Origin: Halalkalibacterium halodurans
Lineage (GTDB): Bacteria > Bacillota > Bacilli > Bacillales > Bacillaceae_D
Assembly: GCF_004376175.1 (NCBI RefSeq)
Contig: NZ_SNUY01000004.1
Coordinates: forward strand, 41,799-65,253
DNA: 23,455 nucleotides
Direction of reading: 5' to 3'
In this document: one piece after another, positions 1,729-17,777 of the stretch
Layout of the letters: the number at the start of each line of letters is the position of its first letter
Position numbering within the stretch: the stretch's first letter is position 1
Translations under genes and position numbers: made by a program
Notes under the pieces: model-generated
What the model was told of the DNA's origin: nothing
Databases searched by the model: none
Seen by the model: only the letters and a program-made list of their open reading frames with translations

Positions 1729-1866
1729 CGTGAGTGCTTCTGAACTTGCGAAAGTACACGGCCATAAACAGCAATCAATCAACAGAAAAAAGGTTCGGAT
1801 CATCAAAATAAAATGATTCGAACCTTTTTATTACGTTTGGCTAGTTTTGTCACAGCTTCTTGTTTA
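1729..1866 (+). repeat. Copy A of an imperfect repeat family of about 130-150 nt, inverted relative to copy B at 20142-20292
   Basis: The 26-nt core GGTTCGGATCATCAAAATAAAATGAT (1792-1817) is the exact reverse complement of 20191-20216. The flanks also align by eye, e.g. GAACTTGCGAAAGTACACGGCCATAAACA versus GAACTTACGAAAAGTATACGGCCATAAACG, and TTACGTTTGGCTAGTTTTGTCACAG versus TTACGCTTGGCTCGTTTTGTCCCAG. Confidence 0.75.
1785..1830 (-). terminator. Bidirectional rho-independent terminator ending the EPS operon
   Basis: 12-bp stem GGTTCGGATCAT (1792-1803) / ATGATTCGAACC (1813-1824) with one G-U pair. It is flanked by an A-run (1786-1791) and a T-run (1825-1829) and lies 43 nt past the stop of the 1091-aa gene. 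Confidence 0.75.
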
Positions 1867-1872
1867 GGTCTG

Positions 1873-4800
1873 TTACTCTTTAATGGAAGTAAACGCTTCT
1901 TTTACTAGATCATAGGATTGCTTCAGTCGTTCTTCATAGAGGGGAATATCCCACGTTTCCCAAGTATACATGTTCATCACTTCATCCGTCAGACGATCTC
2001 CATCTAGTGCTGGTAGAGCATCAACGACTTGATAAGAGTCATCATCCTTTGGTTCAACAAATAACACCCCTGCACGAACCCCTTCGATGATCTCACTCGT
2101 TTCTCCGCCTTCACCCTCGTAGATAGCCGACATGACCTCACGCTGACTCGGGTCTTTAAAACTTAATAGTAGCCATGGAATGCGGACTTCTATCATTCCT
2201 TTTTCTTCATTGACAAAAAAGTCAGCAAGGGAATCGTAATCATCTGCTTCAGGATCACCATTTCCATGACGCAGTTCTCCTGTTTCGTAGTAACTAAACG
2301 GGATCACTTCATTCGTTGATGGAATACGGATCTCTTGGTTTAATGCATAGTGAATCTTTTGAAACACCCCCGTATTATTTTGAGGCTCAATGGATGTCTC
2401 TTCGATCATTTGATAGATTTGGCTGTATTGATAGGTGAAGAAATCATAATAGGAGTCTACCTTTACTCGCGATTCATCATAGCCCTTCAATTCGATAATG
2501 AAATCAATTCCGTGATCAAAGGTCACACCCTCAACTTCTTTGATGTGCTCATTACCTTGGCCCGGTAAAGTATCTAGCACCAAAATCGGGAATCCATCTT
2601 TAAAGAAATCGTCAGTTGATCCCGACTTCATATCGATTCGGAAATAAAGGTAACGTTCATCGTGATCCATGTACAGCCTCTTCACATACGGGTGATCCTC
2701 TTCATAAAGTAAGGATGCATCCTCCCAGTCTTGATCGTCTCCATTCACTTTCACTTTTAGACGGTCAAAGCTGAGCAAGCCAAATTGCTGCTCATTCGTT
2801 TGAGCATTGGACCAAAAAGGACGACGGTCAGGATTATCGTAATCCATCGTGTTCCATGTGCGTTTGAACCATTCATCCTGCCACGTAAAGATAAGCCCAC
2901 CTAAAAGCTTTTCCTCGATAATATCCTCAAACAATTCGACGACAATTTTCCCTTGCTCCTCTTCTGACAAAAACCCTTGATTCTTCCCAAATGGATTTTC
3001 GTGGGTAAGACCTCTAGATGCTGGAACACCAAATTCAGCGATCAAAATCGGAAGATCGTGAGCATCATGCAAATCCTTCAAATAGCCCGCGTAATTATTC
3101 AATTCACCCCGATGATCCACATAATGAATATAGTCTTCTTCATAATTCAAAAAATCAGGGTAATACGGGTAAACATGATAGGAGGCAAATTGATTGGTTT
3201 CTGTTGCTGGTCCTTTGAGATGAATCACATTCGGATCCACACCGACTAGATCTTCATCTTCGTATGGCTCCGCTGGATGTGTCAACAGATCGGTTGTAAC
3301 CCAGTTTGTAAAGCTGACTGGCCTAATCCAGTTATATTGCTCTATTTCATACGAAAGCAAAATATCAAACTGATTAGCTAGCCAATACTCAAACGGCTCA
3401 GCATCTTTTGTTTCCACATATTTGCCGTCATAATCCCCTATATCAGGATTGTTTTTATTCGTTGCTTTGACTGTGTGAGGATACCACTCAATCCCAATAA
3501 TCCAGCCGATCGTATAGGGGGAAACATCGGCTTGATACACGCCATGGGCATGCCCAGGATTAGGATCCACGACAGCATTTCCATGGATAACATCAACGAT
3601 TCGTTTCATTTCTTGTTGAAACTCTTCATTTGTTTCTTCATCAAACGCATCAAGTGTATCTTCAAGTGGCTCTTCATCGATCCACACGCCATGAAAGAGA
3701 TAAATCGGATTTTCATGCTGTTCGTTATATCGTTTTAACGCATGATAAAAGCCCGGTGGGTGTAGTGTATACACACGGATTGCATTTCCGCCCATCTCTC
3801 CGATTTGTTCAAACCAGCGATAGTAATCTTTTTCTTTAATGGCCGCTTCCCCTGGAAATGTCCCCGGTTTCCCCATCCCGAGGTTAACTCCATGGATTTG
3901 CAACTTCTTCCACTCATCGTCTACGAATACCTCGTAATCTTGATCATTGATTCTTGCCGTATACGCAAGACCATCCTTTTGTGCCACAGCCACCGCTTCC
4001 TCAGGTTCGATCAGAGTTTCAGCAGTGTGCAGCTCAAGGATCGTTTTCATCATTGGCACGTATGTTTTCCAAAAAAAGCGCTCCTCCGAAAAATCATCCC
4101 ATGCCAGCAAAGCTTTTAATTTGTTGATCCCTTTGTATTGATGGACTTTTGGAACTTCTGCAATATCTGTAAAATCACCTGCAAAGTAAAAGCTTCGCGA
4201 TTGGGGACGATCATGTCCAACCACTGCTGCAAACTGAATTGGAAGATCATGCTTCAGAAGCTCCGCTTTCCCTTCATCTGTCAAGTCCCAGTCATAATAA
4301 GCTAGAACATCTTCTTCACGCTCTGCCTCAACGACATCAAACCAGTACAAGTAATTTGGACTTGTAGTCAAATTGAACAGTTCCTGCCCCCGCTCTGTAA
4401 AACTCATGCGAATGCCTTTTTCATTAAAATGTTCCTTTTCGAGCAAAACGACAATTTCTTGAGCCTCCTCATCTACGAGGATAAAACCTGGCCCCTCATA
4501 ATTCCACTCCAAACCTAACTCGTTGTAATGATCAAGCATCCAAGCCGGAATTTCATTGTTTAGTTCATGGTCTAGCTCTTGGAAGTAGCGACCGATCCAC
4601 CCAGAGCGCTTAACGTATAAATATTCACTAACACTGTCACGGACATTCTCCTCAGTTGGAGAAGCAAACGAGTTAAATTCAACGATGAGAGTACTTCGCT
4701 TCTCTTGCTGCAAACGATCATAAATCGTTTGCCATTCCTCCATTTCGAGCCCCCCGTATAAAAGCTCAGAGCGAGTTCCTTCTCGTTCAAGATCGATCCA

Positions 4801-5148
4801 TGGTAAGTCTTCCTCATAGACACCATACGTATCGGCTACGTAGATTACATCCGCATCATCTAACGATTCAGGAAGAGGCTGAACCGAATACGTTTGCTCG
4901 CTTTCATTAGGAACAAACCCATAATAATCAGTCGCCGCGTGATACGATGACCCGTCTTTTTTTTCATACTTATAGCTATTCAAAACCCACGTAATTCCAA
5001 GATGCTCACGATAGGTTTCGTCAGGGACCGTTTTATCGAGAATGGCGACCTGCAATTCCGTCGGCTCCTTTAAATACCATAAAGCAACAGGCAAAAACAT
5101 GAGAAGGAGCAATAAACCGATACTTAACTTAATCAGCAACGCCTTCAT
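1873..5148 (-). CDS. Large membrane-anchored extracytoplasmic multidomain protein with a clan GH-A-like (beta/alpha)8 hydrolase or transglycosylase core; last gene of the EPS operon
   Basis: 1091-aa ORF with N-terminal hydrophobic anchor MKALLIKLSIGLLLLLMFLPVALWYL. The central region carries HGVNLGMG, GIEWYPH (Glu554, 3487-3489), ILIAEFGVP (Glu705, 3034-3036) and FTWQDEWFKRTW, resembling an acid/base plus nucleophile pair. The protein is very Asp/Glu rich. SD GGAAAGGAA lies upstream of the ATG, 30 nt after the GT2 stop. Confidence 0.6.
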   Translation of the reverse strand: MKALLIKLSIGLLLLLMFLPVALWYLKEPTELQVAILDKTVPDETYREHLGITWVLNSYKYEKKDGSSYHAATDYYGFVPNESEQTYSVQPLPESLDDADVIYVADTYGVYEEDLPWIDLEREGTRSELLYGGLEMEEWQTIYDRLQQEKRSTLIVEFNSFASPTEENVRDSVSEYLYVKRSGWIGRYFQELDHELNNEIPAWMLDHYNELGLEWNYEGPGFILVDEEAQEIVVLLEKEHFNEKGIRMSFTERGQELFNLTTSPNYLYWFDVVEAEREEDVLAYYDWDLTDEGKAELLKHDLPIQFAAVVGHDRPQSRSFYFAGDFTDIAEVPKVHQYKGINKLKALLAWDDFSEERFFWKTYVPMMKTILELHTAETLIEPEEAVAVAQKDGLAYTARINDQDYEVFVDDEWKKLQIHGVNLGMGKPGTFPGEAAIKEKDYYRWFEQIGEMGGNAIRVYTLHPPGFYHALKRYNEQHENPIYLFHGVWIDEEPLEDTLDAFDEETNEEFQQEMKRIVDVIHGNAVVDPNPGHAHGVYQADVSPYTIGWIIGIEWYPHTVKATNKNNPDIGDYDGKYVETKDAEPFEYWLANQFDILLSYEIEQYNWIRPVSFTNWVTTDLLTHPAEPYEDEDLVGVDPNVIHLKGPATETNQFASYHVYPYYPDFLNYEEDYIHYVDHRGELNNYAGYLKDLHDAHDLPILIAEFGVPASRGLTHENPFGKNQGFLSEEEQGKIVVELFEDIIEEKLLGGLIFTWQDEWFKRTWNTMDYDNPDRRPFWSNAQTNEQQFGLLSFDRLKVKVNGDDQDWEDASLLYEEDHPYVKRLYMDHDERYLYFRIDMKSGSTDDFFKDGFPILVLDTLPGQGNEHIKEVEGVTFDHGIDFIIELKGYDESRVKVDSYYDFFTYQYSQIYQMIEETSIEPQNNTGVFQKIHYALNQEIRIPSTNEVIPFSYYETGELRHGNGDPEADDYDSLADFFVNEEKGMIEVRIPWLLLSFKDPSQREVMSAIYEGEGGETSEIIEGVRAGVLFVEPKDDDSYQVVDALPALDGDRLTDEVMNMYTWETWDIPLYEERLKQSYDLVKEAFTSIKE

Positions 5149-5178
5149 ATCTAAATTCCTTTCCGTAAAAAGTAGACT

Positions 5179-6627
5179 CTAGCTAGCTTTTTGTTCTGCT
5201 TTGGTCAATCCTTTTCGCGTCATTTCTCCCCATTCCTTTGACCTGAACAAGGCTTCAATAATGGCTCCAAAACGCCAAAGCACCGTTAGTGGTCTATACC
5301 ATAAAGCTTCAAATAGAGAAAAGATCATCAAGCGAGACATATCGCTAACCTTTGGATACCGTTTTAAGCTCCACCCCTCTAAAATAACAGCAGTCATGGA
5401 AAAAACGGTCCCGTATAAGACAAACAGGAGGAACAAGGCCAATGCAAACTCTACATAAAGACCTCCAAAGAAGAAAGCAAACACAATATAAAGATAGCCC
5501 ATTAATTCAACGACGGGGTCAAAAAACTCAACAATCCAAAAGTAAGGAATGGATGCCGTTCCAACTAAACCATATTTCGGGTTAAAGGTCATCCCGCGAT
5601 GAAGCCATAGACTTTCCATTAATCCGCGGTGCCATCTGCTTCGTTGTCGTTGTAGAACCCTGAATGTTGCTGGCGCTTCAGTCCAACAAATGGGATCAGG
5701 GACGAAGGTGATTCTTTTTTTCAATCTTTTTTCTTTTACCAAGCGGTGGAGTCTGACGACAAGCTCCATGTCTTCACCGACGGTTTTCTTTGAATACCCT
5801 CCTGCTTCCATGACCCATTTTTTCGCAAATACGCTAAACGCACCAGATATAATAAGCACCATGTTATGCCGGCTCAATCCAATTCTCCCCATTAAAAAAG
5901 CGCGCAAATATTCAATGACCTGCATAACGACTAATGGATTTTTCGCTAGCTGAACAGACAGTACACTCCCCATCTGAATATCGCTTCCATTGGCAATGCG
6001 TACGTTACCTCCCGAAGCGATAACCTCGTCCTCATCATCTCTTGATGTCACAATGGGTTTCATCACTTTTAACAAAGCATCTGTTTCTAATATCGAGTCA
6101 CCGTCAATGGAACAAAAGTATGGATACTTTGACACATTAAGCCCTGCATTTAACGCATCTGCTTTCCCCCCATTGCTTTTATCAACCAACAGCAAATGAG
6201 GGAAAATCGTCGATTGATAGACCCCTTTAATCGGCTCCGTTTCGATTTGCTTACGGATCACCTTCCCAACCTTAACCATCTGAAAGTGTTCAATTATAAC
6301 CTCCAGCGTTTGATCCGTTGAACCATCATTGACGACAACGATTTCCGTCTGTGGGTATTTTAAGCTTAATAAAGAGCGAACCGTTTCAATAATCCCTGTC
6401 TCCTCATTGTAAGCTGGAACTAGGATAGAAACAGGCTTCGTATACGTTAATTCTAAATAATCATCATAAACCTCTTGCTTATTAAGCTTCTGCTCTCGTT
6501 TCAATTGAACGACGGAAAGTAAGAGCATTCCGGTATAAACGAGCACGACAATCCCCATATAACCTAGAAGGAACCAAGCAAAAAGATAGGGAAGGTACGA
6601 CACTATATTTGTTATAGCATTCATCAT
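5179..6627 (-). CDS. Processive family-2 glycosyltransferase (polysaccharide synthase, PgaC/IcaA/BcsA-like catalytic core without a PilZ domain)
   Basis: 482 aa with two N-terminal and several C-terminal hydrophobic helices. Motifs: VPAYNEE, VVNDGSTD, GGKADALNAG, SIDGDS (DxD), VGEDMEL (catalytic base motif) and QRQRSRWHRG (QxxRW). Confidence 0.88.
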   Translation of the reverse strand: MMNAITNIVSYLPYLFAWFLLGYMGIVVLVYTGMLLLSVVQLKREQKLNKQEVYDDYLELTYTKPVSILVPAYNEETGIIETVRSLLSLKYPQTEIVVVNDGSTDQTLEVIIEHFQMVKVGKVIRKQIETEPIKGVYQSTIFPHLLLVDKSNGGKADALNAGLNVSKYPYFCSIDGDSILETDALLKVMKPIVTSRDDEDEVIASGGNVRIANGSDIQMGSVLSVQLAKNPLVVMQVIEYLRAFLMGRIGLSRHNMVLIISGAFSVFAKKWVMEAGGYSKKTVGEDMELVVRLHRLVKEKRLKKRITFVPDPICWTEAPATFRVLQRQRSRWHRGLMESLWLHRGMTFNPKYGLVGTASIPYFWIVEFFDPVVELMGYLYIVFAFFFGGLYVEFALALFLLFVLYGTVFSMTAVILEGWSLKRYPKVSDMSRLMIFSLFEALWYRPLTVLWRFGAIIEALFRSKEWGEMTRKGLTKAEQKAS

Positions 6628-6630
6628 CGA

Positions 6631-7665
6631 TCACATTCCTAAGGCTTCTTTCCCTATGTCTTTCGCATAGGGATCTTCTTCGGTCTCCACAATCGCGCGA
6701 AGCACCGATTTGCCATTTTTTTGTTGAACTATGGATTGGGCAGCTTGTGAGCGAACCCACCACGACTGATCTTTCAATAAATGTTGTAAGCTGCTAACCG
6801 CCTCGGGTGAATCTACATTGGCCAATATTTTGGCGACCATCATGCGTTCCTCCCAATTCTCAGATTCTACAAAAGGGTAATAGATTTTTTCGTTTTGAAC
6901 GATCCCAAGTTGGCTGAGTACCTTAAGTGACCGAACTCGAACCTCCAGCTCATCATCATGAATTCGCTCCTCTAGAAAGGGAACCATCTCAACGAGGTGT
7001 TTGACCCCGATCATATCAAGGACGGTGTGTTTCAATGCAGAAGGGAAGTCTTGATAATGATCAATCATGTTTAAAAACGGCTTTTCTTCTAACTCAAATA
7101 ATAATTTTCGATACTCCATTTCATTCATCTCAATCTTCGGATTCAATAAATGCTGTAGAAAGTCTTCATACTGAAAAGCAGCTAATATGCGATAAATCTG
7201 TAGGTACTCGTCATCCGAGTAATGTTTGTTTTCGTTTAGCATGTTTAGAACATCATCTAACAGATCCTTCATCCGAAACTCTAAAATCCGATGGAGCGTA
7301 TTCATGCGAGTGCTCCAATTCAGGCTATTTAAATTTTTTTTATAATAGGGCGAAAGGAATTGATGCGCATAATCGGTAATTCGCGCTGATACCATGTCAC
7401 TGCTAATATTTTTAGCATATGAACGAAGGATTTTTTCCATGGCAATGAGCTTTGTTGAAGAGTCTGGAATGATTTGCTCAGCAGGCGCATCACCTTCTAT
7501 TAAATAGCGATAAGCCCAGTCGCTTCCGTCTTTAACGTAGTCCGCGATTTTGCGCTGAACACGAACTTCGATCATTCGTTGGACAACTAAATAGATGAAT
7601 AACAAAATCAAAACGGCCATAAAGCTCAAAATGGCTATTGTTAACCATACGATCGCATTCCCCAT
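6631..7665 (-). CDS. Single-pass membrane protein with a cytoplasmic HEAT/ARM-like repeat domain
   Basis: 344 aa with N-terminal TM AIVWLTIAILSFMAVLILLFIYLVV. C-terminal HEAT-type repeats include DDELEVRVRSLKVLSQLG, ENWEERMMVAKILANV and DQSWWVRSQAAQSIVQ. The start overlaps the upstream stop (TAATG), and its own stop lies 3 nt before the GT2 start. Confidence 0.7.
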   Translation of the reverse strand: MGNAIVWLTIAILSFMAVLILLFIYLVVQRMIEVRVQRKIADYVKDGSDWAYRYLIEGDAPAEQIIPDSSTKLIAMEKILRSYAKNISSDMVSARITDYAHQFLSPYYKKNLNSLNWSTRMNTLHRILEFRMKDLLDDVLNMLNENKHYSDDEYLQIYRILAAFQYEDFLQHLLNPKIEMNEMEYRKLLFELEEKPFLNMIDHYQDFPSALKHTVLDMIGVKHLVEMVPFLEERIHDDELEVRVRSLKVLSQLGIVQNEKIYYPFVESENWEERMMVAKILANVDSPEAVSSLQHLLKDQSWWVRSQAAQSIVQQKNGKSVLRAIVETEEDPYAKDIGKEALGM

Positions 7666-8129
7666 TATCGTAACCTCTTTAAATACCGTTTAAGACGAGA
7701 TTCTACAAATTTTACGTTAAACGGCTTTGTAATATAATCATCGACACCCATCTCAAAAGCGTATGTGACATCTTCTTCTGTTTTTCTGTTCGATAACATC
7801 ATGACAATATACTTTTCATTGTTTGGCATTTTTCGCAGCTCATGGACCATCTCCAGACCATTTCGCTTAGGTAAGACGTCATCCATGATCACGATATGTG
7901 TATGGGCTGACCGGTGCCAAGAAGATTCTAATAGCGCTTCCCCATCAAAAAAGGTTTGAACATCAAGTTCGAAATATTCGAGCGTGAGTCGCTGTAGCAA
8001 ATTAACGAGTACGCTGCGGATTACCTGATCCTCGACAATCACCGTTACTTTTATTTTCTCAACGTTTGGTTCTTGGAAGTCATTGACTGTTTCGATCGTT
8101 GAAGCCCCTTTAAAAACAGCCTCCTGCAA
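7665..8129 (-). CDS. Response-regulator receiver domain, either stand-alone as drawn or the C-terminal domain of the upstream degenerate GGDEF protein if the A6 frameshift is repaired
   Basis: Canonical REC motifs: VIVEDQ, HIVIMDDVLPKRNG (acceptor Asp), IVMMLS and DYITKPF (Lys). The ORF as drawn starts at TTG (8129) and overlaps the upstream ORF by 79 nt. Its first about 20 codons (KEALQEAVFKGASTIETV) look like the end of a GGDEF domain. Confidence 0.7.
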   Translation of the reverse strand: MQEAVFKGASTIETVNDFQEPNVEKIKVTVIVEDQVIRSVLVNLLQRLTLEYFELDVQTFFDGEALLESSWHRSAHTHIVIMDDVLPKRNGLEMVHELRKMPNNEKYIVMMLSNRKTEEDVTYAFEMGVDDYITKPFNVKFVESRLKRYLKRLR

Positions 8130-9037
8130 GGCTTCTTTTCCTTTTTTAGCATTCCTTCATATGTGACGTCTGCATTGTTAATCTCCACGAGGCTTGCACT
8201 AAGCTCGATGAAAAATTGTAGTGGCTCCCCGTTTTCCGTAGTCGTCACGGGAGGAATATGTTCAAAGACACGACGAACAAAATATCCCGCCTCTGTTTGA
8301 CCCCCGTTTGGTAAAATGACCGCGATCTCATCCTCTGCATCCATTCGAAAAGCAAGATCAGAATCCCGCACTTGACTTTTAATATAGTCAGTCACTGTAG
8401 CCACAATTTGATCTGCAATCGTTAACCCATATTTCGTTTTTAATTCGTAATAATTGTATAAAGATAAGAAGATCACCGTGAAAGATGTTTTAAACCTGAC
8501 CAGATTCGCAACCTGCAAATGAAACATTTTCTCTAAAAATCGTTCCGTGTATAATTTGGTCACTAAATCAATTTGCCGATCGTTTTTTATTCGAGTACAA
8601 TGATCAAGCTTTGCTTTCATCTTTAAATAGAAAGTTTCTAGGTTAAATGGGCTGGATATGAATTCGTGTCCGTTCGCAAAAATTTGGCCCATTTCTTCAT
8701 GGCTGCATTCACCTATGTAAAAGAAAGGGACGTGAAGATAATGGTGACTCCCACTTGTTTTTTCGTATAATTGATACATTTGTTTAGATTTCGCTGTATT
8801 AATAAACACAACACTATCAATAGAAAGGGATCCGAGAATTGCGACCGCATCATCCGATTGATTCGTAGATACGAGCTCAAAATCACCTTGATCCACTAGT
8901 TGGTTCTCAAGCAATTTGTAGGTAGGTTCATGGTCATAATAAATGAACACGACCTGTTTCTCTTTCTTTGCCTGCTGCTCGGCTACACCTTTCGTTTGCA
9001 GGGGGTTCTGTACGCCCTGTTGATTCGTTTCTCCCAC
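8051..9037 (-). CDS. Pseudo-receiver plus degenerate GGDEF domain protein; catalytically dead with the I-site retained, so a putative c-di-GMP receptor. The 3' end is probably frameshifted.
   Basis: GTG start. The N-terminal REC-like fold lacks the acceptor Asp (VVFINTA) and the conserved Lys (EFISSPF). The GGDEF-like domain has DLVTKLYTERFL, metal/substrate Asp residues lost (FLSLYNYYELKTKYG), and RDSDLAFRMDAEDEIAVIL, i.e. RxxD intact five residues before DAEDE in place of GG(D/E)EF. The last 29 aa (EKKPCRRLFLKGLQRS...) look like out-of-frame sequence. Confidence 0.7.
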   Translation of the reverse strand: MGETNQQGVQNPLQTKGVAEQQAKKEKQVVFIYYDHEPTYKLLENQLVDQGDFELVSTNQSDDAVAILGSLSIDSVVFINTAKSKQMYQLYEKTSGSHHYLHVPFFYIGECSHEEMGQIFANGHEFISSPFNLETFYLKMKAKLDHCTRIKNDRQIDLVTKLYTERFLEKMFHLQVANLVRFKTSFTVIFLSLYNYYELKTKYGLTIADQIVATVTDYIKSQVRDSDLAFRMDAEDEIAVILPNGGQTEAGYFVRRVFEHIPPVTTTENGEPLQFFIELSASLVEINNADVTYEGMLKKEKKPCRRLFLKGLQRSKQSMTSKNQTLRK

Positions 9038-9109
9038 TCTACGACACCCGCCTTTTGTAAATGCCTTTTATCCTTCTGTACTTTCCACCGTCAATCATCC
9101 CCCGTAAGA

Positions 9110-10063
9110 TTACATGCCTTGGACCACCACCTGATTTTTTCCTGTTTTTTTTCCTTTATATAAAGCGTCATCTGCCGCCTTAATCAACTCTTCGATCCGA
9201 ACCGAAGGGCGATATTCAGAAATTCCAAATGTCGCAGTAATCGAAATGGTCATCCCCTTATAAATGACGGGAGATTCATTGATTTTTTGTCTGATTTTTT
9301 CACAAGCTTTTTTCCCTTCTTCCAGTTTTGTTTCTGGAAAAAGTAAAAGAAACTCATCTCCTCCCCACCTTGAAACATAATCACTTGAACGAACACTGTT
9401 CTTAAGGGTGGATACGAAATGTTTCAACACATGATCACCGCAATCATGACCGTACGTATCATTGATGTTTTTAAAGAAATCAATATCAACGATCGCTAAA
9501 GTAAAAGATCTCCCGTGCCGTATGCTCCGATTGATTTCTGCACGTATTTTCTCCTGCATGTCTCGACGATTTATTAAGTTTGTAAGAAAATCTACCCTAG
9601 ACAGCCGATCGACCTTCTGAATTTTTCCTTTCAGTTTTTCATTTTGCTCTTCCAACATTTTTACATGTTGTTCAAGGTACTTGCGTGAACTTTCTTGCTT
9701 CAATAAAGATTTCATTCGAAGCACAAGCTCTCTCGCCTCAAAAGGCTTGATTATATAGTCTTGCCCTCCTACCTCAAAACCTTTAATAACGGCCTCTTTC
9801 TCTTTTAAACTTGAAACAAAAATGACAGGAATTTTCGCCGATTCTACCTGAGCTTTTAGACGCCTACACGTTTCAAATCCGTCCATATCTGGGAGCGCCA
9901 CTTCGAGCAAAATCAGGTCTGGGACGTTTTCCTTTGCCATTCGAACCGCTTCTTCCCCCGTTCGGGCAACCGTCACAAGAAAATGAGTGTTCAGTAGATT
10001 TTCTAGCTTACGAATATTTGATTGTGAATCATCAACAATTTGGATTTTTTTCATCCTATTCAC
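9110..10063 (-). CDS. Response regulator-diguanylate cyclase (REC-coiled coil-GGDEF, PleD/WspR-like) with an atypical receiver
   Basis: 317 aa. GGDEF domain motifs: DFLTNLINRR, DIDFFKNINDTYGHDCGDHVL and RSSDYVSRWGGDEFLLLF (intact I-site and active site). The REC has VDDS, PDLILLEVALPDMDG (Glu54 where the acceptor Asp is expected), VIFVSS and DYIIKPF. Confidence 0.9.
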   Translation of the reverse strand: MNRMKKIQIVDDSQSNIRKLENLLNTHFLVTVARTGEEAVRMAKENVPDLILLEVALPDMDGFETCRRLKAQVESAKIPVIFVSSLKEKEAVIKGFEVGGQDYIIKPFEARELVLRMKSLLKQESSRKYLEQHVKMLEEQNEKLKGKIQKVDRLSRVDFLTNLINRRDMQEKIRAEINRSIRHGRSFTLAIVDIDFFKNINDTYGHDCGDHVLKHFVSTLKNSVRSSDYVSRWGGDEFLLLFPETKLEEGKKACEKIRQKINESPVIYKGMTISITATFGISEYRPSVRIEELIKAADDALYKGKKTGKNQVVVQGM

Positions 10064-10235
10064 ATCTCCCTATCAACGTTACCGTCTTATCAATGCCTAT
10101 GGTAGATGATGATTCATTATGATGGAGAGAACATGAATCTTTTTACTTTTTAGACATGGTTAATTGTATACACAAGCGACAATAAAAATAGCCTTGCTCA
10201 TTCATATATCCCTTCCGTCCCTTTGAATGATCAAC

Positions 10236-10272
10236 ATTATATCAAGGTCTTCTGCACAAAAACTATACATCC
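10236..10272 (-). promoter_or_regulatory. Candidate extended -10 promoter for the c-di-GMP/EPS operon
   Basis: The minus strand reads TGATATAAT (TGnTATAAT; plus coordinates 10236-10244) with only a weak -35. This would give a leader of about 170 nt before the cyclase ATG. Confidence 0.35.
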
Positions 10273-10435
10273 ACCTAATATTAGGGATAAAATTAAGTAA
10301 AAGGACTGGCTGTCGATCTAGGAATGAAGTTCACATCCCTTCAATCGTAGACTGTAACTAACAATTTGAGGTTCGTTTTTAAGACTAAGTATTTAGTGAT
10401 TTATACACTAGAAAAGGTCTTCCCTTTTTCGTACA

Positions 10436-10470
10436 TAGAAAAGGCATGAGCCATCAGAGACTCATGCCTT
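10436..10470 (-). terminator. Rho-independent terminator of the nitroreductase gene
   Basis: Perfect 10-bp stem AAGGCATGAG / CTCATGCCTT (10441-10470), followed on the minus strand by TTTTCTAT, 30 nt past the stop codon. Confidence 0.75.
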
Positions 10471-10499
10471 AAAACGTTTCGTTATTTTCTTTTTCTTCA

Positions 10500-11479: not shown

Positions 11480-12925
11480 ATGGCTTTACAAACAGAACAA
11501 TTCAACGCAAACATTCTAAGGAATGGTGAGTGGGTGGAAAGTCGAACTGGCGAACGCATTTCGATTTCTGCTCCAGCATCTGGCGTAGCTCTTGGATCTA
11601 TCCCAGCCTTATCCCAAGAGGAAGTAAATGATGCGATTCAAGGAGCAAAAGATGCACAGAAAATTTGGAAGATTCGCCCGATTCATGAACGTGTAGACTT
11701 GCTTTACGCTTGGGCTGACCTTTTAGAGGAACGAAAAGAGATCATTGGCGAACTCATCATGCATGAAGTCGCCAAACCAAAAAAATCAGCAATTGGTGAG
11801 GTTAGTCGAACAGCCGACATTATCCGCCACACAGCTGATGAAGCCCTCCGTTTAAATGGAGAAACCCTCAAAGGGGACCAGTTCAAAGGGGGAAGTTCGA
11901 AGAAAATTGCTCTGGTGGAGCGCGAACCTCTTGGTGTCGTTTTAGCGATTTCACCATTTAACTACCCAGTTAACCTTGCGGCAGCAAAAATTGCCCCAGC
12001 CCTCGTGGCAGGAAATACTGTCGTCTTTAAACCGGCAACTCAAGGGTCATTAAGCGGTATTAAAATGGTTGAAGCACTTGCAGATGCAGGAGCACCAGAA
12101 GGAATCATTCAAGTTGTAACCGGCCGTGGTTCTGTTATCGGTGACCACTTGGTTGAACACCCAGGTATTGATATGATTACATTTACAGGTGGAACAACTA
12201 CTGGAGAGCGTATTTCCGAAAAAGCGAAAATGATTCCTGTCGTTTTAGAGCTTGGCGGAAAAGATCCAGCGATCGTTCTCGACGATGCCGACTTAAAGCT
12301 TACAGCTAGCCAAATTGTGAGCGGAGCTTTTTCCTACTCTGGTCAACGTTGCACAGCGATTAAACGTGTGTTCGTTCAAGACAGTGTAGCAGATCAGCTC
12401 GTAGCTAACATTAAGGAGCTAGTCGAGCAACTAACGGTCGGAAGCCCTGAGGACGATGCGGACATTACTCCCGTTATTGATGAAAAAAGCGCAGAGTTCA
12501 TTCAAGGGTTAATCGATGATGCCCTCGAAAATGGAGCAACCTTACTATCTGGCAACAAGCGTCAAGGCAACCTCTTGTCACCGACACTGTTAGATGATGT
12601 CACACCTGCAATGCGTGTAGCTTGGGAAGAGCCATTCGGCCCTGTCCTTCCAATCATTAGAGTGAAAGACGCAAATGAAGCCATTAGCTTGAGCAATCAA
12701 TCCGACTATGGGCTTCAAGCGAGCATCTTTACGAAAGACACCGATCGCGCGATCAACATCGGGAAACATTTAGAAGTCGGGACGGTCCATATTAACGCAA
12801 AAACGGAGCGTGGGCCTGATCACTTCCCATTCTTAGGTGTAAAAAAATCTGGTCTAGGTGTACAAGGCATTAAGCCAAGCCTTTTATCCATGACTCGCGA
12901 GCGCGTGACCGTACTTAACCTGTAA
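11480..12925 (+). CDS. gapN: Non-phosphorylating NADP-dependent glyceraldehyde-3-phosphate dehydrogenase (aldehyde dehydrogenase superfamily)
   Basis: ALDH motifs ELGGKDP and FSYSGQRCTAIKR (catalytic Cys), with a GapN-like N-terminus. I prefer the ATG at 11480 (MALQTEQ...) because GGAGAGG lies 10-11 nt upstream; the ORF track's GTG at 11468 sits inside that SD. Confidence 0.85.
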   Translation: MALQTEQFNANILRNGEWVESRTGERISISAPASGVALGSIPALSQEEVNDAIQGAKDAQKIWKIRPIHERVDLLYAWADLLEERKEIIGELIMHEVAKPKKSAIGEVSRTADIIRHTADEALRLNGETLKGDQFKGGSSKKIALVEREPLGVVLAISPFNYPVNLAAAKIAPALVAGNTVVFKPATQGSLSGIKMVEALADAGAPEGIIQVVTGRGSVIGDHLVEHPGIDMITFTGGTTTGERISEKAKMIPVVLELGGKDPAIVLDDADLKLTASQIVSGAFSYSGQRCTAIKRVFVQDSVADQLVANIKELVEQLTVGSPEDDADITPVIDEKSAEFIQGLIDDALENGATLLSGNKRQGNLLSPTLLDDVTPAMRVAWEEPFGPVLPIIRVKDANEAISLSNQSDYGLQASIFTKDTDRAINIGKHLEVGTVHINAKTERGPDHFPFLGVKKSGLGVQGIKPSLLSMTRERVTVLNL

Positions 12926-12970
12926 TCTTATGGCTTGTCGAGTGGAAAAGACTTTTCGCTAGTAACTGTA

Positions 12971-13007
12971 AAGAGCCAGCGACATCTTAGAATCGCTGGC
13001 TCTTTTT
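12971..13007. terminator. Bidirectional terminator between convergent gapN and the phosphatase gene
   Basis: 12-bp stem AAGAGCCAGCGA (12971-12982) / TCGCTGGCTCTT (12993-13004), followed by TTT on the plus strand. Confidence 0.8.
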
Positions 13008-13017
13008 ACACATTGGT

Positions 13018-13500
13018 TTATCCTTGATCCGTTAGCCCTTCTTTTTCACAGATATAAGCAAGCAACCGCTCACATCCTTCGGAAATAAGATCGTACACTT
13101 CATCAAAATTCCCTGTAAAGTAAGGGTCTGGTACATCCACTATCGTTGCAGCAGGTACATAATCTAGAAGCCGAGAAATCTCTGCTTTTCCAGTTGCTCC
13201 AGCTATCGCGCGAAGGTTTCCGACATTCTCCGTATCCATTCCGATCATATAATCAAAGCGATGAACATCCTCTTTTACTACCTGTCTCGCCTTTAATCCC
13301 CCGGAAGGAATGTCGTTTTCCTGTAAAATGGTCAGTGTTTCTTTATGAGGCGGTTTGCCCACATGCCAGTTGCCCGTTCCAGCTGAATCGATTTGAAATG
13401 AAGCGGATAGCCCCGCTTCGTTCACTTTATGACGAAAGATCGCTTCAGCCATTGGTGAGCGGCAAATGTTTCCTAAACATACAAACAATACTCGTATCAC
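13018..13500 (-). CDS. yfkJ: Low-molecular-weight protein-tyrosine phosphatase
   Basis: 160 aa, GTG start. P-loop VCLGNICRSPMAEA (CX5R-S) and a DPY(F/Y) loop (VPDPYFTGNF). Resembles B. subtilis YfkJ along its length as far as I can recall. Confidence 0.85.
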   Translation of the reverse strand: MIRVLFVCLGNICRSPMAEAIFRHKVNEAGLSASFQIDSAGTGNWHVGKPPHKETLTILQENDIPSGGLKARQVVKEDVHRFDYMIGMDTENVGNLRAIAGATGKAEISRLLDYVPAATIVDVPDPYFTGNFDEVYDLISEGCERLLAYICEKEGLTDQG

Positions 13501-13579
13501 ATTTCTCGACTCCTTTAATTCTCCTCTTGTATACAGAAAGCAATATGAGCTTGGCCATCATTCTATGGAGCCCGATGAT

Positions 13580-14212
13580 TTAGTCAAAAAATTCAATCTC
13601 AAGATCCAGCTCTTCCACTTCGGATGGATCAATGTCGAGGATCGCATAAACTTGAGATTTTAACCTGTCAGAGTTCGTTCCTTCCGAAAGATCAAGCTGG
13701 GAAAGAAAATCTTCCATCCACTCAACCGCTTGTTTACCCGACATTTTTTCCTTATGCGCTCCATCCCACTCGACTTTTGCCTTCCCTTTCTCGTTTTTCT
13801 TCTGTTCATACTCCATTTCTAGCTCGTCTCCGTCCTGCCATTCCAACTCTAGCTTAAACTTTTTCACATTAAGAGCAAAGGCTTGATTGTTTTCATCAGC
13901 AGGTCGTTGTTCGGTCTCCTCTACGTTTTCTGACCCAGATGCTTCTGAAGGAGTGGACGTATCCTCCTCTATTGGTTCACTATGTTCAGTCGCTTCTTCT
14001 CCCCGGCTCTCTTCTTCAAGCAGATCATCAACGACAAGTGCTTCTTCATCTGAAAATACGGGTTGGGACGAGTCTTCCTCTTCCCCATCTATCTCGATCG
14101 TCTCATGATCTTCTGGTACCTCCAGCTCATGATCTTCCGTTGCCGATGATCCACAAGCAGCAAGGAGAAGGAGAGTCAATATACATATGCTAAATAAATA
14201 ATGCCGCTTCAT
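13580..14212 (-). CDS. Acidic lipoprotein with a YusW-like C-terminal domain
   Basis: Signal peptide plus lipobox MKRHYLFSICILTLLLLAAC|GSS. A long Glu/Asp/Ser-rich low-complexity linker follows. The C-terminal FKLELEWQDGDELEMEYEQ...LDLEIEFFD resembles YusW-type repeats. Confidence 0.6.
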   Translation of the reverse strand: MKRHYLFSICILTLLLLAACGSSATEDHELEVPEDHETIEIDGEEEDSSQPVFSDEEALVVDDLLEEESRGEEATEHSEPIEEDTSTPSEASGSENVEETEQRPADENNQAFALNVKKFKLELEWQDGDELEMEYEQKKNEKGKAKVEWDGAHKEKMSGKQAVEWMEDFLSQLDLSEGTNSDRLKSQVYAILDIDPSEVEELDLEIEFFD

Positions 14213-14470: not shown

Positions 14471-15085
14471 CTAACCTCCCAACTCCTGAGGTGGCTTCAC
14501 ACATTTAATGAAGAAAATAGCATCATAAGCCTTAATAGGTTTTAAAACGAGAGGAGCCATTCCTAGTAATCTCGTTTCTAATAGCCACCATGCTTGCTTG
14601 TTCCAAGCATTTCTTTTTGCCCCAATATTCGTAGGTAAAAAGAACGTATGTCCATTCAATTCCTTTAGTAGAAGTTCAAGATGGTACTGATTTATCATTG
14701 TGATTTCGTGAAGGTCCTTATAAGGGGTTAAGCATGTGCCACTTCCAGCATAAAACCCAACAGAAAACACTCGGTCAGCGTATTTTTTCGCGAGCAAGTG
14801 ATCTACCGTTTTTATTCTTAATAGTTCCAATAAAAGGGAGCGATTTTTGCGAATATGATAGTTGTGGGCCCAAACAATGAGTTTCTCTCCCTTATAATAA
14901 TTGCGCAACCATTCGATGTTTTCAAACATGAACTGATCTCGAAGGCTTCCTGACCACAAGCGTCCTTTTAAATTTACTAATAGCCATTGCTTTCGATTAA
15001 CCATCCCTCTATGAATCAAAGGTATAATTTCCTCACTGATTTGTTCTTTCCATTCCGAGCGTTTCTCCGTAAATGTTCTGAACAT
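14471..15085 (-). CDS. Erythromycin-esterase-family protein covering the C-terminal half only; possible gene remnant or short form
   Basis: 204 aa containing RDQFMFENIEWLRNYYKGEKLIVWAHNYHI, the Ere-family RDxxMaeN...WAHNxH block. Family members are normally about 400 aa. Only 168 nt separate this ORF from queF, so no N-terminal half is present. It does have its own SD-like AAAGGGGA and ATG. Confidence 0.5.
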   Translation of the reverse strand: MFRTFTEKRSEWKEQISEEIIPLIHRGMVNRKQWLLVNLKGRLWSGSLRDQFMFENIEWLRNYYKGEKLIVWAHNYHIRKNRSLLLELLRIKTVDHLLAKKYADRVFSVGFYAGSGTCLTPYKDLHEITMINQYHLELLLKELNGHTFFLPTNIGAKRNAWNKQAWWLLETRLLGMAPLVLKPIKAYDAIFFIKCVKPPQELGG

Positions 15086-15253: not shown

Positions 15254-15751
15254 TTACCGATTGTCTACCGTTTCAGGGTATAAATCATGGTTCATCATTC
15301 GATATTCGGCCATTTTCTCGTATTTCGTTCCAGGACGGCCATAGTTCGTATACGGGTCAATGCTAATGCCACCACGAGGAGTAAATTTACCCCACACTTC
15401 GATGTAGCGAGGGTCCATGAGCTTGATCAAATCGTTCATAATGATGTTCATCGCATCCTCATGGAAATCACCATGGTTGCGAAAGCTAAACAAGTATAGT
15501 TTCAGTGATTTACTTTCCACCATTTTTACATCGGGAATGTAGCTAATGTAAACAGTAGCAAAGTCAGGCTGTCCCGTCATTGGACAGAGTGTTGTAAATT
15601 CAGGACAGTTGAATTTCACGAAGTAATCTCGCTCTTGGTGTTTGTTTTCAAACACCTCTAAAATGTCAGGATTGTAGTCAAACGTATAGATTGTCCCTTG
15701 GTTTCCAAGCAGCGTAACCCCTTCAAGCTCTTCCTCTTTCCTTCCAGTCAC
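15254..15751 (-). CDS. queF: NADPH-dependent 7-cyano-7-deazaguanine (preQ0) reductase, unimodular type
   Basis: 165 aa with [19 protein letters not shown] (catalytic Cys) and the [20 protein letters not shown] QueF motif. Confidence 0.92.
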
Positions 15752-15779
15752 TGTTCATTCTCCTTCCAAATAAAAAGGT

Positions 15780-16490
15780 TTAGACACCACGCTTATTCCC
15801 CCACACAAGTGTATGGAGCTGCGGTAAAATTTTCGCATCGTTCATGATCGTTGAATCGGTCGCTTTGTTGATGAGCCATTCATATCGGTCAAGAAGTGTC
15901 CGTATTAAAAGGGCATTATCGCCTGTTACCGTATCCTCATTTCCAACTTGTAAAAAGAAAGGGACATGTGGATACCGTTCGTGGACATATTCTGCATAAC
16001 GAAAATCCTCATCATTAAATACGACAACCTTTAAGCTCATTTGCTTTGTATCCAATCGCTCAATGATTTGATCAAGCTTCGTAAAGTCAGTTTTCATTTG
16101 TGAACTTGGGGGTTTTGGCGAAATCGTTAAATCGTCGATTTTGAGAAACCAATCCTGCCATAAAGAGCCTTGTGTCTCTAGTGCCACACGAATGCCTTTG
16201 TCGTGAAGCTTGTCCACTAGCTCGCCTATCCCTTTATGAAGAGCAGGATTCCCGCCGGAAATGGTCACATGGGAGAAACGCTCCCCGCCGATCTCCTCCA
16301 ATTTTGCAATGATCTCATCAGCCGTCCTCAGCGTTGCTTTGAGTGAGCCGTCCCATGTGAAGGCCGAATCACACCATGAACAGCTATAATCGCATCCCCC
16401 CGTGCGAACGAACATCGTCTTTTGCCCTATGACCATTCCTTCTCCTTGAACGGTTGGACCGAAAATCTCCATTACGGGAATTCGCTTCAT
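15780..16490 (-). CDS. queE: 7-carboxy-7-deazaguanine synthase (radical SAM)
   Basis: 236 aa with the CDYSCSWCDS cluster (CX3CX2C variant typical of QueE). Sits inside the queCDEF context and overlaps queD by 4 nt. Confidence 0.9.
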   Translation of the reverse strand: MKRIPVMEIFGPTVQGEGMVIGQKTMFVRTGGCDYSCSWCDSAFTWDGSLKATLRTADEIIAKLEEIGGERFSHVTISGGNPALHKGIGELVDKLHDKGIRVALETQGSLWQDWFLKIDDLTISPKPPSSQMKTDFTKLDQIIERLDTKQMSLKVVVFNDEDFRYAEYVHERYPHVPFFLQVGNEDTVTGDNALLIRTLLDRYEWLINKATDSTIMNDAKILPQLHTLVWGNKRGV

Positions 16491-16909
16491 TCCGCCACCT
16501 TCTTTGGCCTGTACACAACATAACTTGTTGGGGTTTCTCTCACAACCACTTGGACGCAGACGGGCTTATTTGGCCGATTGTCTAAATAAGCCTGAATTCG
16601 CTCATAGATCGTCTTCGCTACCATTTCGGTTGTGGGGAAAGTCCCTTTGAATTCGTCATGGTCATTTAATAGTGTATGATCATATCGTTTATGGACGATT
16701 GTTTTTAGTTGTTTAAAGTCAACGAGAAATCCTGTTTTATCTAATTCGTCTCCAGCGATTGTCACATTGATGAAATATGTGTGCCCGTGAACATCCTGAC
16801 ATTTTCCTGCGTCTTTTGCCGGGATGAAATGGGCAGCAGCTAAGTGCATATCTTTATTTAACTCGAAGCTGTACGGATGGTGGGTTTGCGGATAAAATTG
16901 CTGCATCAT
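16487..16909 (-). CDS. queD: 6-carboxy-5,6,7,8-tetrahydropterin synthase
   Basis: 140 aa with CQDVHGHTY zinc-binding His residues of the PTPS/QueD fold. Overlaps queC by 4 nt. Confidence 0.9.
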
Positions 16910-17577
16910 GCCCGGTCACCTTCTTTTTCAGCCAGATACAACTCAAGCCCGCGGCGACGTAACATACAAGCAGGACATTCCCCGCAGCCATCCCCACGAA
17001 TTCCGTGATAACACGTGAGCGTCTTTTCTCGTACAAAGTCCAAAGCCCCTAATTCATCTGCTAGCTTCCACGTCTCTGCCTTATCTAACCACATAAGCGG
17101 CGTATGAATGACAAATTGGTCATCCATCGCCAAATTTAATGTGACATTTAGCGATTTTATAAACACGTCGCGACAGTCAGGATAGCCGCTATAGTCTGTT
17201 TCACACACTCCGGTGACAAGGTGGCGCGCACCGATTTGCTTGGCGTATACAGCAGCAAACGAAAGAAACAATTGATTGCGCCCTGGGACGAACGTAGACG
17301 GGAGCTCACCGTTCTCTCCATCTTTTACTGCAATCTCCTCTCTCGTAAGCGCACTTTCTGTTAATTGATTCAGCAACGTCATATCGAGTACGCGGAACGA
17401 AACCCCAAGCTGTTCAGCAATTTCCTTTGCACACTCAATTTCCTCGGCATGACGCTGGCCATAATCGAACGTCACTGTCGCCACTTCATCAAATGTTTTC
17501 AATGCCCAAAACAGGCATGTCGTACTATCTTGGCCGCCACTGAACACTACGACGGCTTTCTTTTTTTTGTTTTCCAT
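16906..17577 (-). CDS. queC: 7-cyano-7-deazaguanine synthase
   Basis: 223 aa with PP-loop [13 protein letters not shown] and a C-terminal zinc cluster [16 protein letters not shown]. Confidence 0.92.
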
Positions 17578-17669: not shown

Positions 17670-17740
17670 GAAAAGAAAACTGTACCGCTTGATACAGCCT
17701 TGCCTTAGTTTTTTATAGAGGGAGTTCGCGAACCTCTCTC
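17670..17740 (-). promoter_or_regulatory. preQ1-I riboswitch (aptamer 17703-17739) with a putative terminator expression platform (17670-17699)
   Basis: The minus strand reads AGAGGTTCGCGAACTCCCTCTATAAAAAACTAAGG, near-identical in pattern to the B. subtilis queC preQ1-I aptamer (P1 AGAGG/CCUCU, A-rich tail, CUAAGG). A short stem CTGTA/TACAG plus TTTTCTTTTC follows, then the queC SD. Confidence 0.85.
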
Positions 17741-17777
17741 ACAGAAAACCTGTGAATTTCTTCATGGCAATACGGCT

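Follow-up and report, generated by a model that had tools for sequence, protein, structure and literature searches.

Synthase-dependent exopolysaccharides are central to biofilm biology; only a handful of the systems that make them are understood, and those of Gram-positive bacteria are especially poorly known. In the Pel system, the degenerate GGDEF domain of PelD acts through its I-site as a receptor for cyclic diguanylate (c-di-GMP), together with the membrane-anchored helical-repeat protein PelE and a dedicated extracytoplasmic hydrolase; pel systems have reportedly been found in Gram-positive bacteria too. The Pga system is activated by c-di-GMP without a PilZ domain. In the ydaJKLMN operon of Bacillus subtilis, which is SigB-dependent (PMC13274460), an RxxD motif located five residues before the degenerate GGDEF of YdaK is required for polysaccharide production (PMC5422440). 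The present analysis concerns an operon on the minus strand of a 23,455-nucleotide stretch of Halalkalibacterium halodurans DNA (contig NZ_SNUY01000004.1, positions 41,799 to 65,253; hereafter the window, to which all positions refer unless a locus is named). It encodes a diguanylate cyclase, a 457-aa regulator, a transmembrane (TM) HEAT protein, a family 2 glycosyltransferase (GT2) and a 1091-aa ectoprotein. Similar clusters form a large conserved family of which this locus is a member, and we consider that its products probably make up a synthase-dependent machine whose polysaccharide is beta-linked and either secreted or kept at the surface, controlled by c-di-GMP through the I-site of the regulator.

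Six open reading frames (ORFs), all in the same direction, were located at 9110-10063, 8051-9037, 7665-8129, 6631-7665, 5179-6627 and 1873-5148, with a 436-bp gap on the 5' side of the operon. Their junctions were, in order, a 72-nt gap, a 79-nt overlap, a 1-nt overlap, a 3-nt gap and a 30-nt gap, which reproduced the co-directional layout described in an earlier reading of the window from its letters (hereafter the sequence-only reading). By Pfam, the first product matched REC (1.4e-25) and GGDEF (6e-46), the second GGDEF (3.9e-16), the third REC (4.7e-16), the fourth HEAT_2 (6.9e-15) and the fifth several GT2 families (2.2e-21 and 7.2e-20). Five window products were identical to proteins TES57523-TES57527 of another H. 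halodurans strain in a protein cluster look-up. The large protein shared 99% identity with BH2230 of H. halodurans C-125, in which the equivalents of the operon are BH2230-BH2233 plus the cyclase gene.

The GT2 gene (5179-6627, minus strand; 482 aa) had been taken to encode a processive synthase with every catalytic motif and without PilZ, and Pfam, NCBIfam and alignment results agreed with this. The motif set of processive membrane synthases of the BcsA, PgaC, HAS and chitin synthase type (D, DxD, (T/G)ED and QxxRW) was recognized by eye in the segments DGS (6313-6333), GKADALN (6142-6171), DGD (6094-6105), GED (5764-5778) and QRSRW (5632-5646). Moreover, the GED and QRSRW motifs aligned with TED and QRGRW of BcsA (4hg6/4p00), as did the membrane helices that follow them. 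Hydropathy placed putative membrane blocks at residues 11-44 and 368-418. The best NCBIfam match was PgaC_IcaA (E 5e-37), with 127.8 bits against a cut-off of 422.3, and the CelA model gave 48 bits against 699.1. Identity with Escherichia coli PgaC was 28% over the 283 residues of the glycosyltransferase domain, where the GT2 has two insertions. In sequence, the enzyme thus leans towards the PgaC/IcaA group. The gene that precedes it (6631-7665, minus strand) starts within the stop codon of the receiver ORF (TAATG) and encodes a 344-aa protein. Its HEAT_2 match and its one hydrophobic segment, within residues 1-36, bear out the TM-HEAT protein proposed previously and make it a single-pass one, with the HEAT domain presumably cytoplasmic.

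The large 1091-aa protein had been described as extracytoplasmic in type, and an N-terminal anchor (residues 1-28) was indeed found. Since this was the single hydrophobic segment detected by hydropathy, the positive-inside rule suggests an external location for the remainder. Sequence searches of Pfam, NCBIfam and PDB with this protein, either alone or as a 35-sequence profile, gave no match. Its architecture was therefore approached through an AlphaFold model built from 35 homologs (mean pLDDT, the predicted local distance difference test score, 82.2) and a separate model of residues 1-385 (pLDDT 92.1), both compared with solved structures by Foldseek. Three parts were distinguished: the anchor followed by an alpha/beta/alpha GATase1-like domain with a beta subdomain (residues ~30-375; anchor and domain at 4024-5148), a central (beta/alpha)8 barrel of clan GH-A type (residues ~416-800; 2749-3903) and C-terminal beta-rich domains (residues ~800-1091; 1873-2748), all encoded on the minus strand. 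The last part was delimited from the secondary structure of the model and had no family match.

The barrel matched, with a probability of 1.00, the GH157 endo-beta-1,3-glucanase 9g4n (3.4e-10), GH2 beta-glucuronidases and GH5 mannanases. The candidate catalytic residues are Glu554 (GIEW, 3484-3495), which follows the predicted strand 546-552 and thus stands just after strand 4, and Glu705 (AEFG, 3028-3039), in the predicted strand 701-706, strand 7. In 131 diverse members, the Deinococcus protein included, these positions were Glu in 118 and 124 sequences, respectively. Arg458 on predicted strand 2, His658 and Tyr660 on strand 6 and Trp756 on strand 8 were conserved as well, and the predicted strands place all six residues at the signature positions of GH-A/GH5 enzymes. 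A near-invariant segment, WQDEWFKRTWN (2851-2883), comes after strand 8 and continues as ...W...N.Q..E. As regards the N-terminal domain, the top Foldseek matches were Agd3 (6nwz, E 6.3e-5), the GATase1-like domain B of GH42, 3rht and 2gk3, although the template modelling scores were low (0.21-0.51). The N-terminal domain of Agd3 is CBM87, which resembles 3RHT and ThuA-like proteins (PMC7229062). We call the domain CBM87-like because its PDB neighbours are the same as those reported for CBM87.

In Massilibacterium, the two halves of the ectoprotein are separate adjacent genes, encoding a 714-aa barrel protein and a 361-aa protein with 38% identity to residues 12-372 of the H. halodurans protein (E 1e-80). 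In addition, many relatives consist of the barrel half only (~700 aa, including the C-terminal beta-rich domains). Both arrangements suggest that the large protein is a fusion of two functionally linked ectoproteins. As modelled, it would combine a polymer-binding module with a hydrolase- or transglycosylase-like enzyme, the latter as a candidate activity. The sequence-only reading had seen none of the usual partners of a synthase in the operon. By family name this stands; by function it does not, as the glycoside hydrolase-like barrel and the domain of carbohydrate-binding type point to a polymer-processing partner. In the Massilibacterium senegalense-like contig (locus L084), the split cluster was seen to be followed at 12254-13957 by a gene for a 567-aa protein with weak dual-specificity phosphatase-like matches (Tc-R-P, 1.4e-5).

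Relatives of the large protein are widespread. At least 595 were confirmed among GTDB species representatives. An exhaustive profile search, with sequences clustered at 50%, returned 2653 representatives, of which 1105 had E values below 1e-30. Full-length relatives from Bacillales and Clostridia shared 44-66% identity over ~1060 residues. Gene neighbourhoods were studied in the 80 best loci, to which all locus counts refer. A GT2 gene was present in 65 of them, and in 64 of these 65 it adjoined a HEAT gene; the association of HEAT protein, GT2 and ectoprotein in H. halodurans is thus no one-off. The four families (regulator, HEAT, GT2 and ectoprotein) occurred together in 59/80 loci, usually in that order, and in 13 the GT2 was on the strand opposite to the large gene. 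The cluster was found in many organisms that are studied or put to use, among them H. halodurans, Priestia, Lysinibacillus, Geobacillus, Anoxybacillus and Planococcus. A plasmid search gave three distant matches, one in Deinococcus: a Deinococcus radiophilus plasmid has genes for a GT2 (40% identity), a HEAT protein and a barrel protein with TPR, but none for a GGDEF protein. Triads without regulator, in Deinococcus and in at least five of the 80 loci, suggest that the core of the system is the triad itself, with c-di-GMP control as a lineage-specific addition, and that the role of the HEAT protein would not depend on this control. The two signature proteins are without family assignment, and their annotation is either "hypothetical" or the erroneous "family 2 glycosyl transferase". 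Open-access full texts and preprints yielded no study of the cluster.

A secreted protein of ~290 aa, with the conserved motifs ATWLW... and HLDVEPY and without Pfam match, was encoded near the cluster in 8/80 loci (for instance, L039 15941-16810, L052 17347-18231 and L004 13254-14147); it was not identified among the window ORFs of at least 80 aa.

The regulatory part of the operon begins with the cyclase gene (9110-10054, minus strand), which encodes a 314-aa REC-GGDEF protein. Its likely start is the ATG at 10054, as in the gene calls of conspecific strains, which give the same length, and not 10063. Pfam and motif reading upheld the view of this protein as a signal generator with an intact active site (GGDEF at 9350-9364; I-site RSSD at 9380-9391). 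Alignment with CheY showed that its receiver keeps the acidic pair and the equivalents of Ser87 and Lys109 but has Glu in place of Asp57 (LLEVALP, 9890-9910). With Glu at the acceptor position this receiver cannot take a phosphoryl group in the normal way; the cyclase is probably independent of phosphorylation, and the Glu may mimic the active state. The cyclase scored 275.9 bits with the PleD model NF007135, whose cut-off is 474. Over its whole length it could be aligned with the REC-GGDEF portion of the regulator from the Priestia cluster, at 28% identity (E 3e-42). A separate cyclase was not found within 10 kb upstream of the cluster in the close relative Evansella.

The second and third ORFs correspond to a single gene, orthologous to BH2233 (7665-9037, minus strand), which is intact in other strains and then encodes 457 aa. 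Alignments of the window DNA with loci L001, L081 and L082 revealed that one G is missing here between 8147 and 8146 (GCTA[G]AAAAAGG) with respect to two conspecific contigs and to Evansella (Bacillus) caseinilytica, and that this deletion splits the gene into ORFs 8051-9037 (328 aa) and 7665-8129 (154 aa). In consequence, the operon of the species has five genes and not the six that had been counted. The 457-aa protein consists of a pseudo-receiver, a degenerate GGDEF and a canonical receiver. The motif DAEDE (8327-8341) occupies the GGDEF position, and the I-site RDSD (8357-8368) lies five residues before it, the spacing of PleD and YdaK. Aligned with CheY, the N-terminal domain is devoid of the equivalents of Asp57 and Lys109, and the C-terminal receiver, the best conserved part of the protein, has the full ED, D, S and K set with its acceptor Asp within 7869-7892. 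Hydropathy detected no membrane helix in the cyclase or in either regulator ORF. The earlier description of a dead GGDEF with an intact RxxD, set between a pseudo-receiver and a real receiver and lacking a membrane anchor, was accordingly borne out. Of the three receiver-type domains counted there, one, the C-terminal domain of the regulator, has the canonical phospho-acceptor residues. The "PleD family" label assigned by PGAP to BH2233 is not justified; the score of the second ORF with NF007135 was 38.9 bits for the cut-off of 474.

The split of the regulator must be either a strain-specific mutation or an assembly error. As the frameshift separates the I-site domain from the receiver, regulation in this strain may be uncoupled or lost, and it could be argued that the regulatory arm is broken here, the locus is silent or deregulated and the six-ORF layout is a product of decay. 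The frameshift was restricted to this one sequence among the several of H. halodurans in the protein cluster, the others having an intact protein of 457 aa. Besides, the leader of the operon has two indels and shares 83% identity with that of another strain, compared with 99% in the genes. However, all the other reading frames are intact, with ~99% identity to other strains, the receiver ORF has a possible TTG start preceded by a purine-rich stretch, and a single-base assembly error would also account for the split. We regard this explanation as unlikely, although less so than those discussed below, and it concerns the strain and not the nature of the system. In view of the split regulator and a nearby transposase gene, C-125 or another strain in which the gene is intact would be a better experimental subject. 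This transposase, of the UPF0236 family, is encoded at 54-1394 on the plus strand, ~0.5 kb downstream of the large gene, and at 1-1616 it stands in place of the AraC regulator and GH4 genes of other H. halodurans strains. Synteny with these strains stops ~257 bp past the large gene, and a 34-nt direct repeat (1472-1505 and 1592-1625) was observed at the boundary.

The link to c-di-GMP was explored further by aligning 58 cluster regulators, which fell into two classes. In the 21 members of the active class (REC-GGDEF-REC), GG(D/E)EF is intact, RxxD is present in 17, the C-terminal acceptor Asp in all 21 and an adjacent kinase gene in 19. The 37 members of the inactive class are shorter and have lost GG(D/E)EF and any recognizable active site; RxxD is found in 29 of them and Asn at the acceptor position in 26, and none has a kinase. 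This kinase is a hybrid histidine kinase of ~960-1080 aa with HAMP, GAF and/or PAS, HisKA, HATPase and REC domains by Pfam, and its gene directly follows the large gene. H. halodurans is intermediate between the two classes, with a dead GGDEF, an intact I-site, a pseudo-receiver still present, a canonical C-terminal receiver, no kinase and an additional cyclase upstream. The sequence-only reading had been puzzled by receivers without any kinase or phosphodiesterase. A family search of the window products confirmed that no histidine kinase, EAL, HD-GYP or PilZ domain is encoded there, but the situation is not inexplicable: the kinase occurs only beside an active cyclase domain, and its absence in H. 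halodurans would be a lineage loss. Both classes can coexist, since Domibacillus aminovorans DSM 1314 carries two paralogous clusters (L003 and L038), one with a dead-GGDEF regulator and no kinase and the other with an active REC-GGDEF-REC protein and a hybrid kinase.

Riboswitches supply another connection. In two Planococcus loci without a GGDEF/REC regulator, the genes for the ~290-aa secreted protein, HEAT and GT2 form an operon that is convergent with the ectoprotein gene and has a c-di-GMP-I riboswitch at its head (70-73 bits; the gathering score is 35). Likewise, a Jeotgalibacillus locus has a c-di-GMP-I riboswitch on the 5' side of the genes for the same secreted protein, an active regulator (GGEEF), HEAT and GT2. 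On the sequence evidence, the triad is thus tied to c-di-GMP by three independent predicted links: a cyclase within the cluster, the I-site of a dead GGDEF and a c-di-GMP-I riboswitch. In H. halodurans no c-di-GMP riboswitch was detected in the window by Rfam, the leader being negative even at E = 1. In Gracilibacillus massiliensis (L011 14547-14641), a c-di-GMP-I riboswitch of 81.6 bits was found just 3' of the large gene; it was rejected as part of the system, because it precedes a separate exopolysaccharide locus with LuxR and chain-length-regulator/tyrosine-kinase-type genes, as read by eye. Two polysaccharide loci with c-di-GMP links would therefore adjoin in that genome.

The main argument for a functional I-site is that RxxD is kept, at the correct spacing, in 29/37 dead GGDEFs while the catalytic motif drifts to unrelated sequence. 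It counts directly against the proposal that phospho-relay is all that the 457-aa adaptor does and that its RxxD is a relic, with the c-di-GMP made by the cyclase acting on the GT2/HEAT pair directly or elsewhere in the cell. This proposal would fit the C-terminal receiver of H. halodurans, which retains all the phospho-acceptor residues, and the clusters with an active cyclase, which need some other receptor. Moreover, E. coli PgaCD senses c-di-GMP without PilZ or GGDEF domains, and Sinorhizobium meliloti BgsA reportedly does so as well (cited in PMC10374906). However, phosphorylation cannot be the input in most dead-GGDEF proteins, whose receivers are without acceptor Asp, and no kinase is encoded in the window. 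We therefore find a purely phospho-relay role improbable and retain control through the I-site.

The machine that we propose would work as follows. The multi-pass GT2 would polymerize a common UDP-sugar and thread the chain through its own membrane channel, as its anatomy and conservation suggest, with the TM-HEAT protein as its obligate partner on the cytoplasmic face. Outside, the ectoprotein would bind the emerging chain by its CBM87-like domain and cleave or transglycosylate it by the GH-A-type barrel, a role that may be likened to those of BcsZ, the C-terminal domain of PgaB, PslG or PelA. The REC-GGDEF enzyme of the operon would make c-di-GMP, the 457-aa protein would bind it at the RxxD I-site of its dead GGDEF, and the C-terminal receiver, whose gene ends in the start of the HEAT gene, would relay the signal to the HEAT/GT2 complex. 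In PleD, c-di-GMP bound at the I-site bridges the GGDEF and a receiver-like domain, which offers a physical model for such a relay. The fuller form of the system would be that in which an active REC-GGDEF-REC cyclase is driven by the hybrid kinase encoded after the large gene. The chain is presumed to be beta-linked, because GT2 enzymes invert and the barrel resembles retaining beta-glycosidases, and its precursor is probably a housekeeping UDP-sugar, since no sugar-nucleotide genes accompany the cluster. The hints about the polymer diverge, the GT2 pointing to PgaC/IcaA and the nearest solved fold of the barrel acting on beta-1,3-glucan.

Several points weigh against this reading. That a polymer is formed, that c-di-GMP is bound and that the barrel is active as a hydrolase are all matters that we infer. 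The large gene was without a nearby GT2 in 11 loci with full flanks, no GGDEF/REC regulator is present with the triad of Deinococcus or in at least five of the 80 loci, and no c-di-GMP receptor was identified in the active-cyclase clusters. In the barrel, the canonical Asn before the putative acid/base Glu is absent, with Ile, Arg or Val instead, and model confidence was low at residues 756-787, where the large protein is most conserved. Finally, the frameshift, the transposase and the end of synteny described above may mean that the system is decaying in this strain.

The altered Asn-Glu pair also bears on the kind of product. The polymer might be a wall- or membrane-associated glycan and the large protein a transglycosylase of the retaining type, by which the chain is grafted or remodelled in the manner of fungal GH17/GH72 enzymes. 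Clan GH-A retaining enzymes do include transglycosylases, the nearest solved fold acts on beta-1,3-glucan, and the large protein, with at least 50% identity across orders over 1060 aa, is far better conserved than accessory hydrolases usually are. On the other hand, sequence cannot tell hydrolysis from transglycosylation, and biofilm matrix polymers are those usually marked by c-di-GMP control of this kind (cyclase, I-site and riboswitch). In our judgement a grafting function has a low probability, comparable to that given to the phospho-relay role, and a secreted or surface polysaccharide under c-di-GMP control is preferred.

More tentatively, and with slightly less than even confidence, we propose that the triad is a previously undescribed fifth kind of synthase-dependent system beside those for cellulose, poly-N-acetylglucosamine (PNAG), alginate and Pel, the yda system having been compared by description only. 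It would make a beta-linked polymer in hundreds of Bacillota and some Deinococcota, and the ectoprotein, a candidate for a new CAZy family, would found a new family of glycoside hydrolases or transglycosylases. In the same proposal, the regulators would form a stepwise series from a kinase-driven cyclase to a pure c-di-GMP receptor, with H. halodurans as an intermediate that has cyclase and receptor in separate genes. The forms met across genomes (cyclase with kinase, dead cyclase with I-site and pseudo-receiver, riboswitch) offer a comparative set for the conversion of an enzyme into a receptor. Once the polymer and the role of the HEAT protein are defined, a further matrix component would be known, and with it a new means by which c-di-GMP is coupled to a synthase.

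With regard to transcription, a promoter had been placed in the 436-bp gap. A candidate extended -10 element, TGaTATAAT, was seen there by eye (10236-10244, minus strand), and another strain has kept it in a leader that is polymorphic in other respects. Its -35 region is poor, however, and for this reason it was not listed by a consensus promoter scan. The leader differences extend over 10055-10499, where segments of 132 and 48 bp are absent from the present sequence. A possible upstream ORF of 20 codons (10143-10205, minus strand), preceded by a purine-rich stretch, was also noticed, and its sequence varies between strains. The strong terminator expected at the other end of the operon was located at 1787-1829 (minus strand). 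It has 17-nt arms, a 9-nt loop and a U-run, and it folds at -18.6 kcal/mol (z = -5.96), with 0/200 shuffles folding as well.

Elsewhere in the window there are genes for two transposases, a nitroreductase, an aldehyde dehydrogenase, a low-molecular-weight phosphatase, YusW, an erythromycin esterase fragment, a queCDEF operon with a preQ1 riboswitch, an M29 peptidase, a SIMPL protein and an esterase. The second transposase gene (DDE_Tnp_1, 500 aa) is at 21834-23336 on the plus strand, at the window end opposite to the first. The ORF at 14471-15085 (minus strand) is probably a truncated gene, its match to the erythromycin esterase family being confined to the C-terminal half (positions 199-356 in a profile of 358). 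The preQ1 riboswitch (17699-17742, minus strand; 50.5 bits, gathering score 39) lies 5' of four minus-strand ORFs within 15254-17577, which were read as queC, queD, queE and queF by eye, without a family search.

It is very improbable that this is just one more ortholog of a characterized system such as pga/ica, bcs, pel, pss or ydaJKLMN: the best curated model of the GT2 is PgaC_IcaA and, as leads only, YdaN (703 aa) is close in size to the ~700-aa barrel-only relatives and Agd3-type deacetylases have in their CBM87 a domain like the N-terminal one, but the PgaC_IcaA and CelA scores fall far below their cut-offs, no PilZ, BcsB, CE4, PgaD/IcaD, GH8, PelF or PelG match was obtained and the receptor is soluble, unlike YdaK, PelD and PssE. 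Orthology with pga/ica, bcs or pel had been singled out for checking, and with such scores and their defining partners absent, the sequence evidence indicates that this is not a pga/ica, bcs or pel system.

The closest relationship of the synthase is with PgaABCD and IcaADBC, as the D, DxD, ED and QxxRW motifs are shared with PgaC. These PNAG systems differ in that the GT2 score is less than a third of their cut-off, in the two insertions with respect to PgaC and in the partners, which are here the TM-HEAT protein and the 1091-aa ectoprotein. Among the operon products there was no match to Polysacc_deac or other carbohydrate esterase families, the operon contains no small membrane ORF of PgaD/IcaD type, and the 1091-aa protein shows no similarity to PgaB. 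As to BcsA-BcsB, the TED/GED and QxxRW motifs and the following helices align, and in both cases there is a large extracytoplasmic partner with a single anchor; the partner described here, however, has its anchor at the N terminus and includes a barrel that resembles an enzyme. No match to PilZ, BcsB or Glyco_hydro_8 (BcsZ) was obtained among the operon or window products. The mixed-linkage glucan synthase of Romboutsia was considered as a relative and rejected, for it has PilZ and is BcsA/CcsA-like. E. coli NfrB is reportedly another GT2 under local c-di-GMP control, and it is noted only as such.

The Pel system is alike in outline, but it relies on a cytoplasmic GT4 enzyme, PelF, and a separate transporter, PelG; PelD has TM and GAF regions and PelA combines GH166 and CE4. 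No PelF, PelG or PelA family match was found among the operon or window products. The ectoprotein shares with Agd3 the GATase1-like fold of CBM87, and with GH-A enzymes the barrel with Glu after strands 4 and 7. It differs from them in having no CE18 or CE4 esterase domain and no match to CAZy-related Pfam families, in the missing Asn of the Asn-Glu pair, and in a domain order, an anchor and an invariant DEW...W...W segment that are specific to its family. PleD also unites receiver and GGDEF in one protein with an RxxD I-site, although its order is REC-REC-GGDEF, whereas the regulator is REC-GGDEF-REC with the inactive motif DAEDE.

As in YdaK, PelD and PssE, a degenerate GGDEF with an I-site would be the receptor that gates the polysaccharide machine. 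The ydaJKLMN operon is likewise a synthase operon of Bacillales in which a degenerate GGDEF with RxxD stands beside a GT2 and large uncharacterized proteins. However, YdaK has four TM helices and no receivers, whereas the regulator of H. halodurans is without membrane helix and flanked by receivers; the yda operon includes the glycosyl hydrolase gene ydaJ and has neither a HEAT protein nor a cyclase of its own. YdaM reportedly shares 74-96% identity across Bacillus and Lysinibacillus (PMC13274460), far above the 55-60% of the present GT2 between genera of that kind, a difference that hints at separate groups of orthologs. Even if both systems were related, their domain composition differs: the GH8-type gene and the membrane-anchored receptor of yda have no counterpart in H. 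halodurans, where the HEAT protein, the receivers and the cyclase are added.

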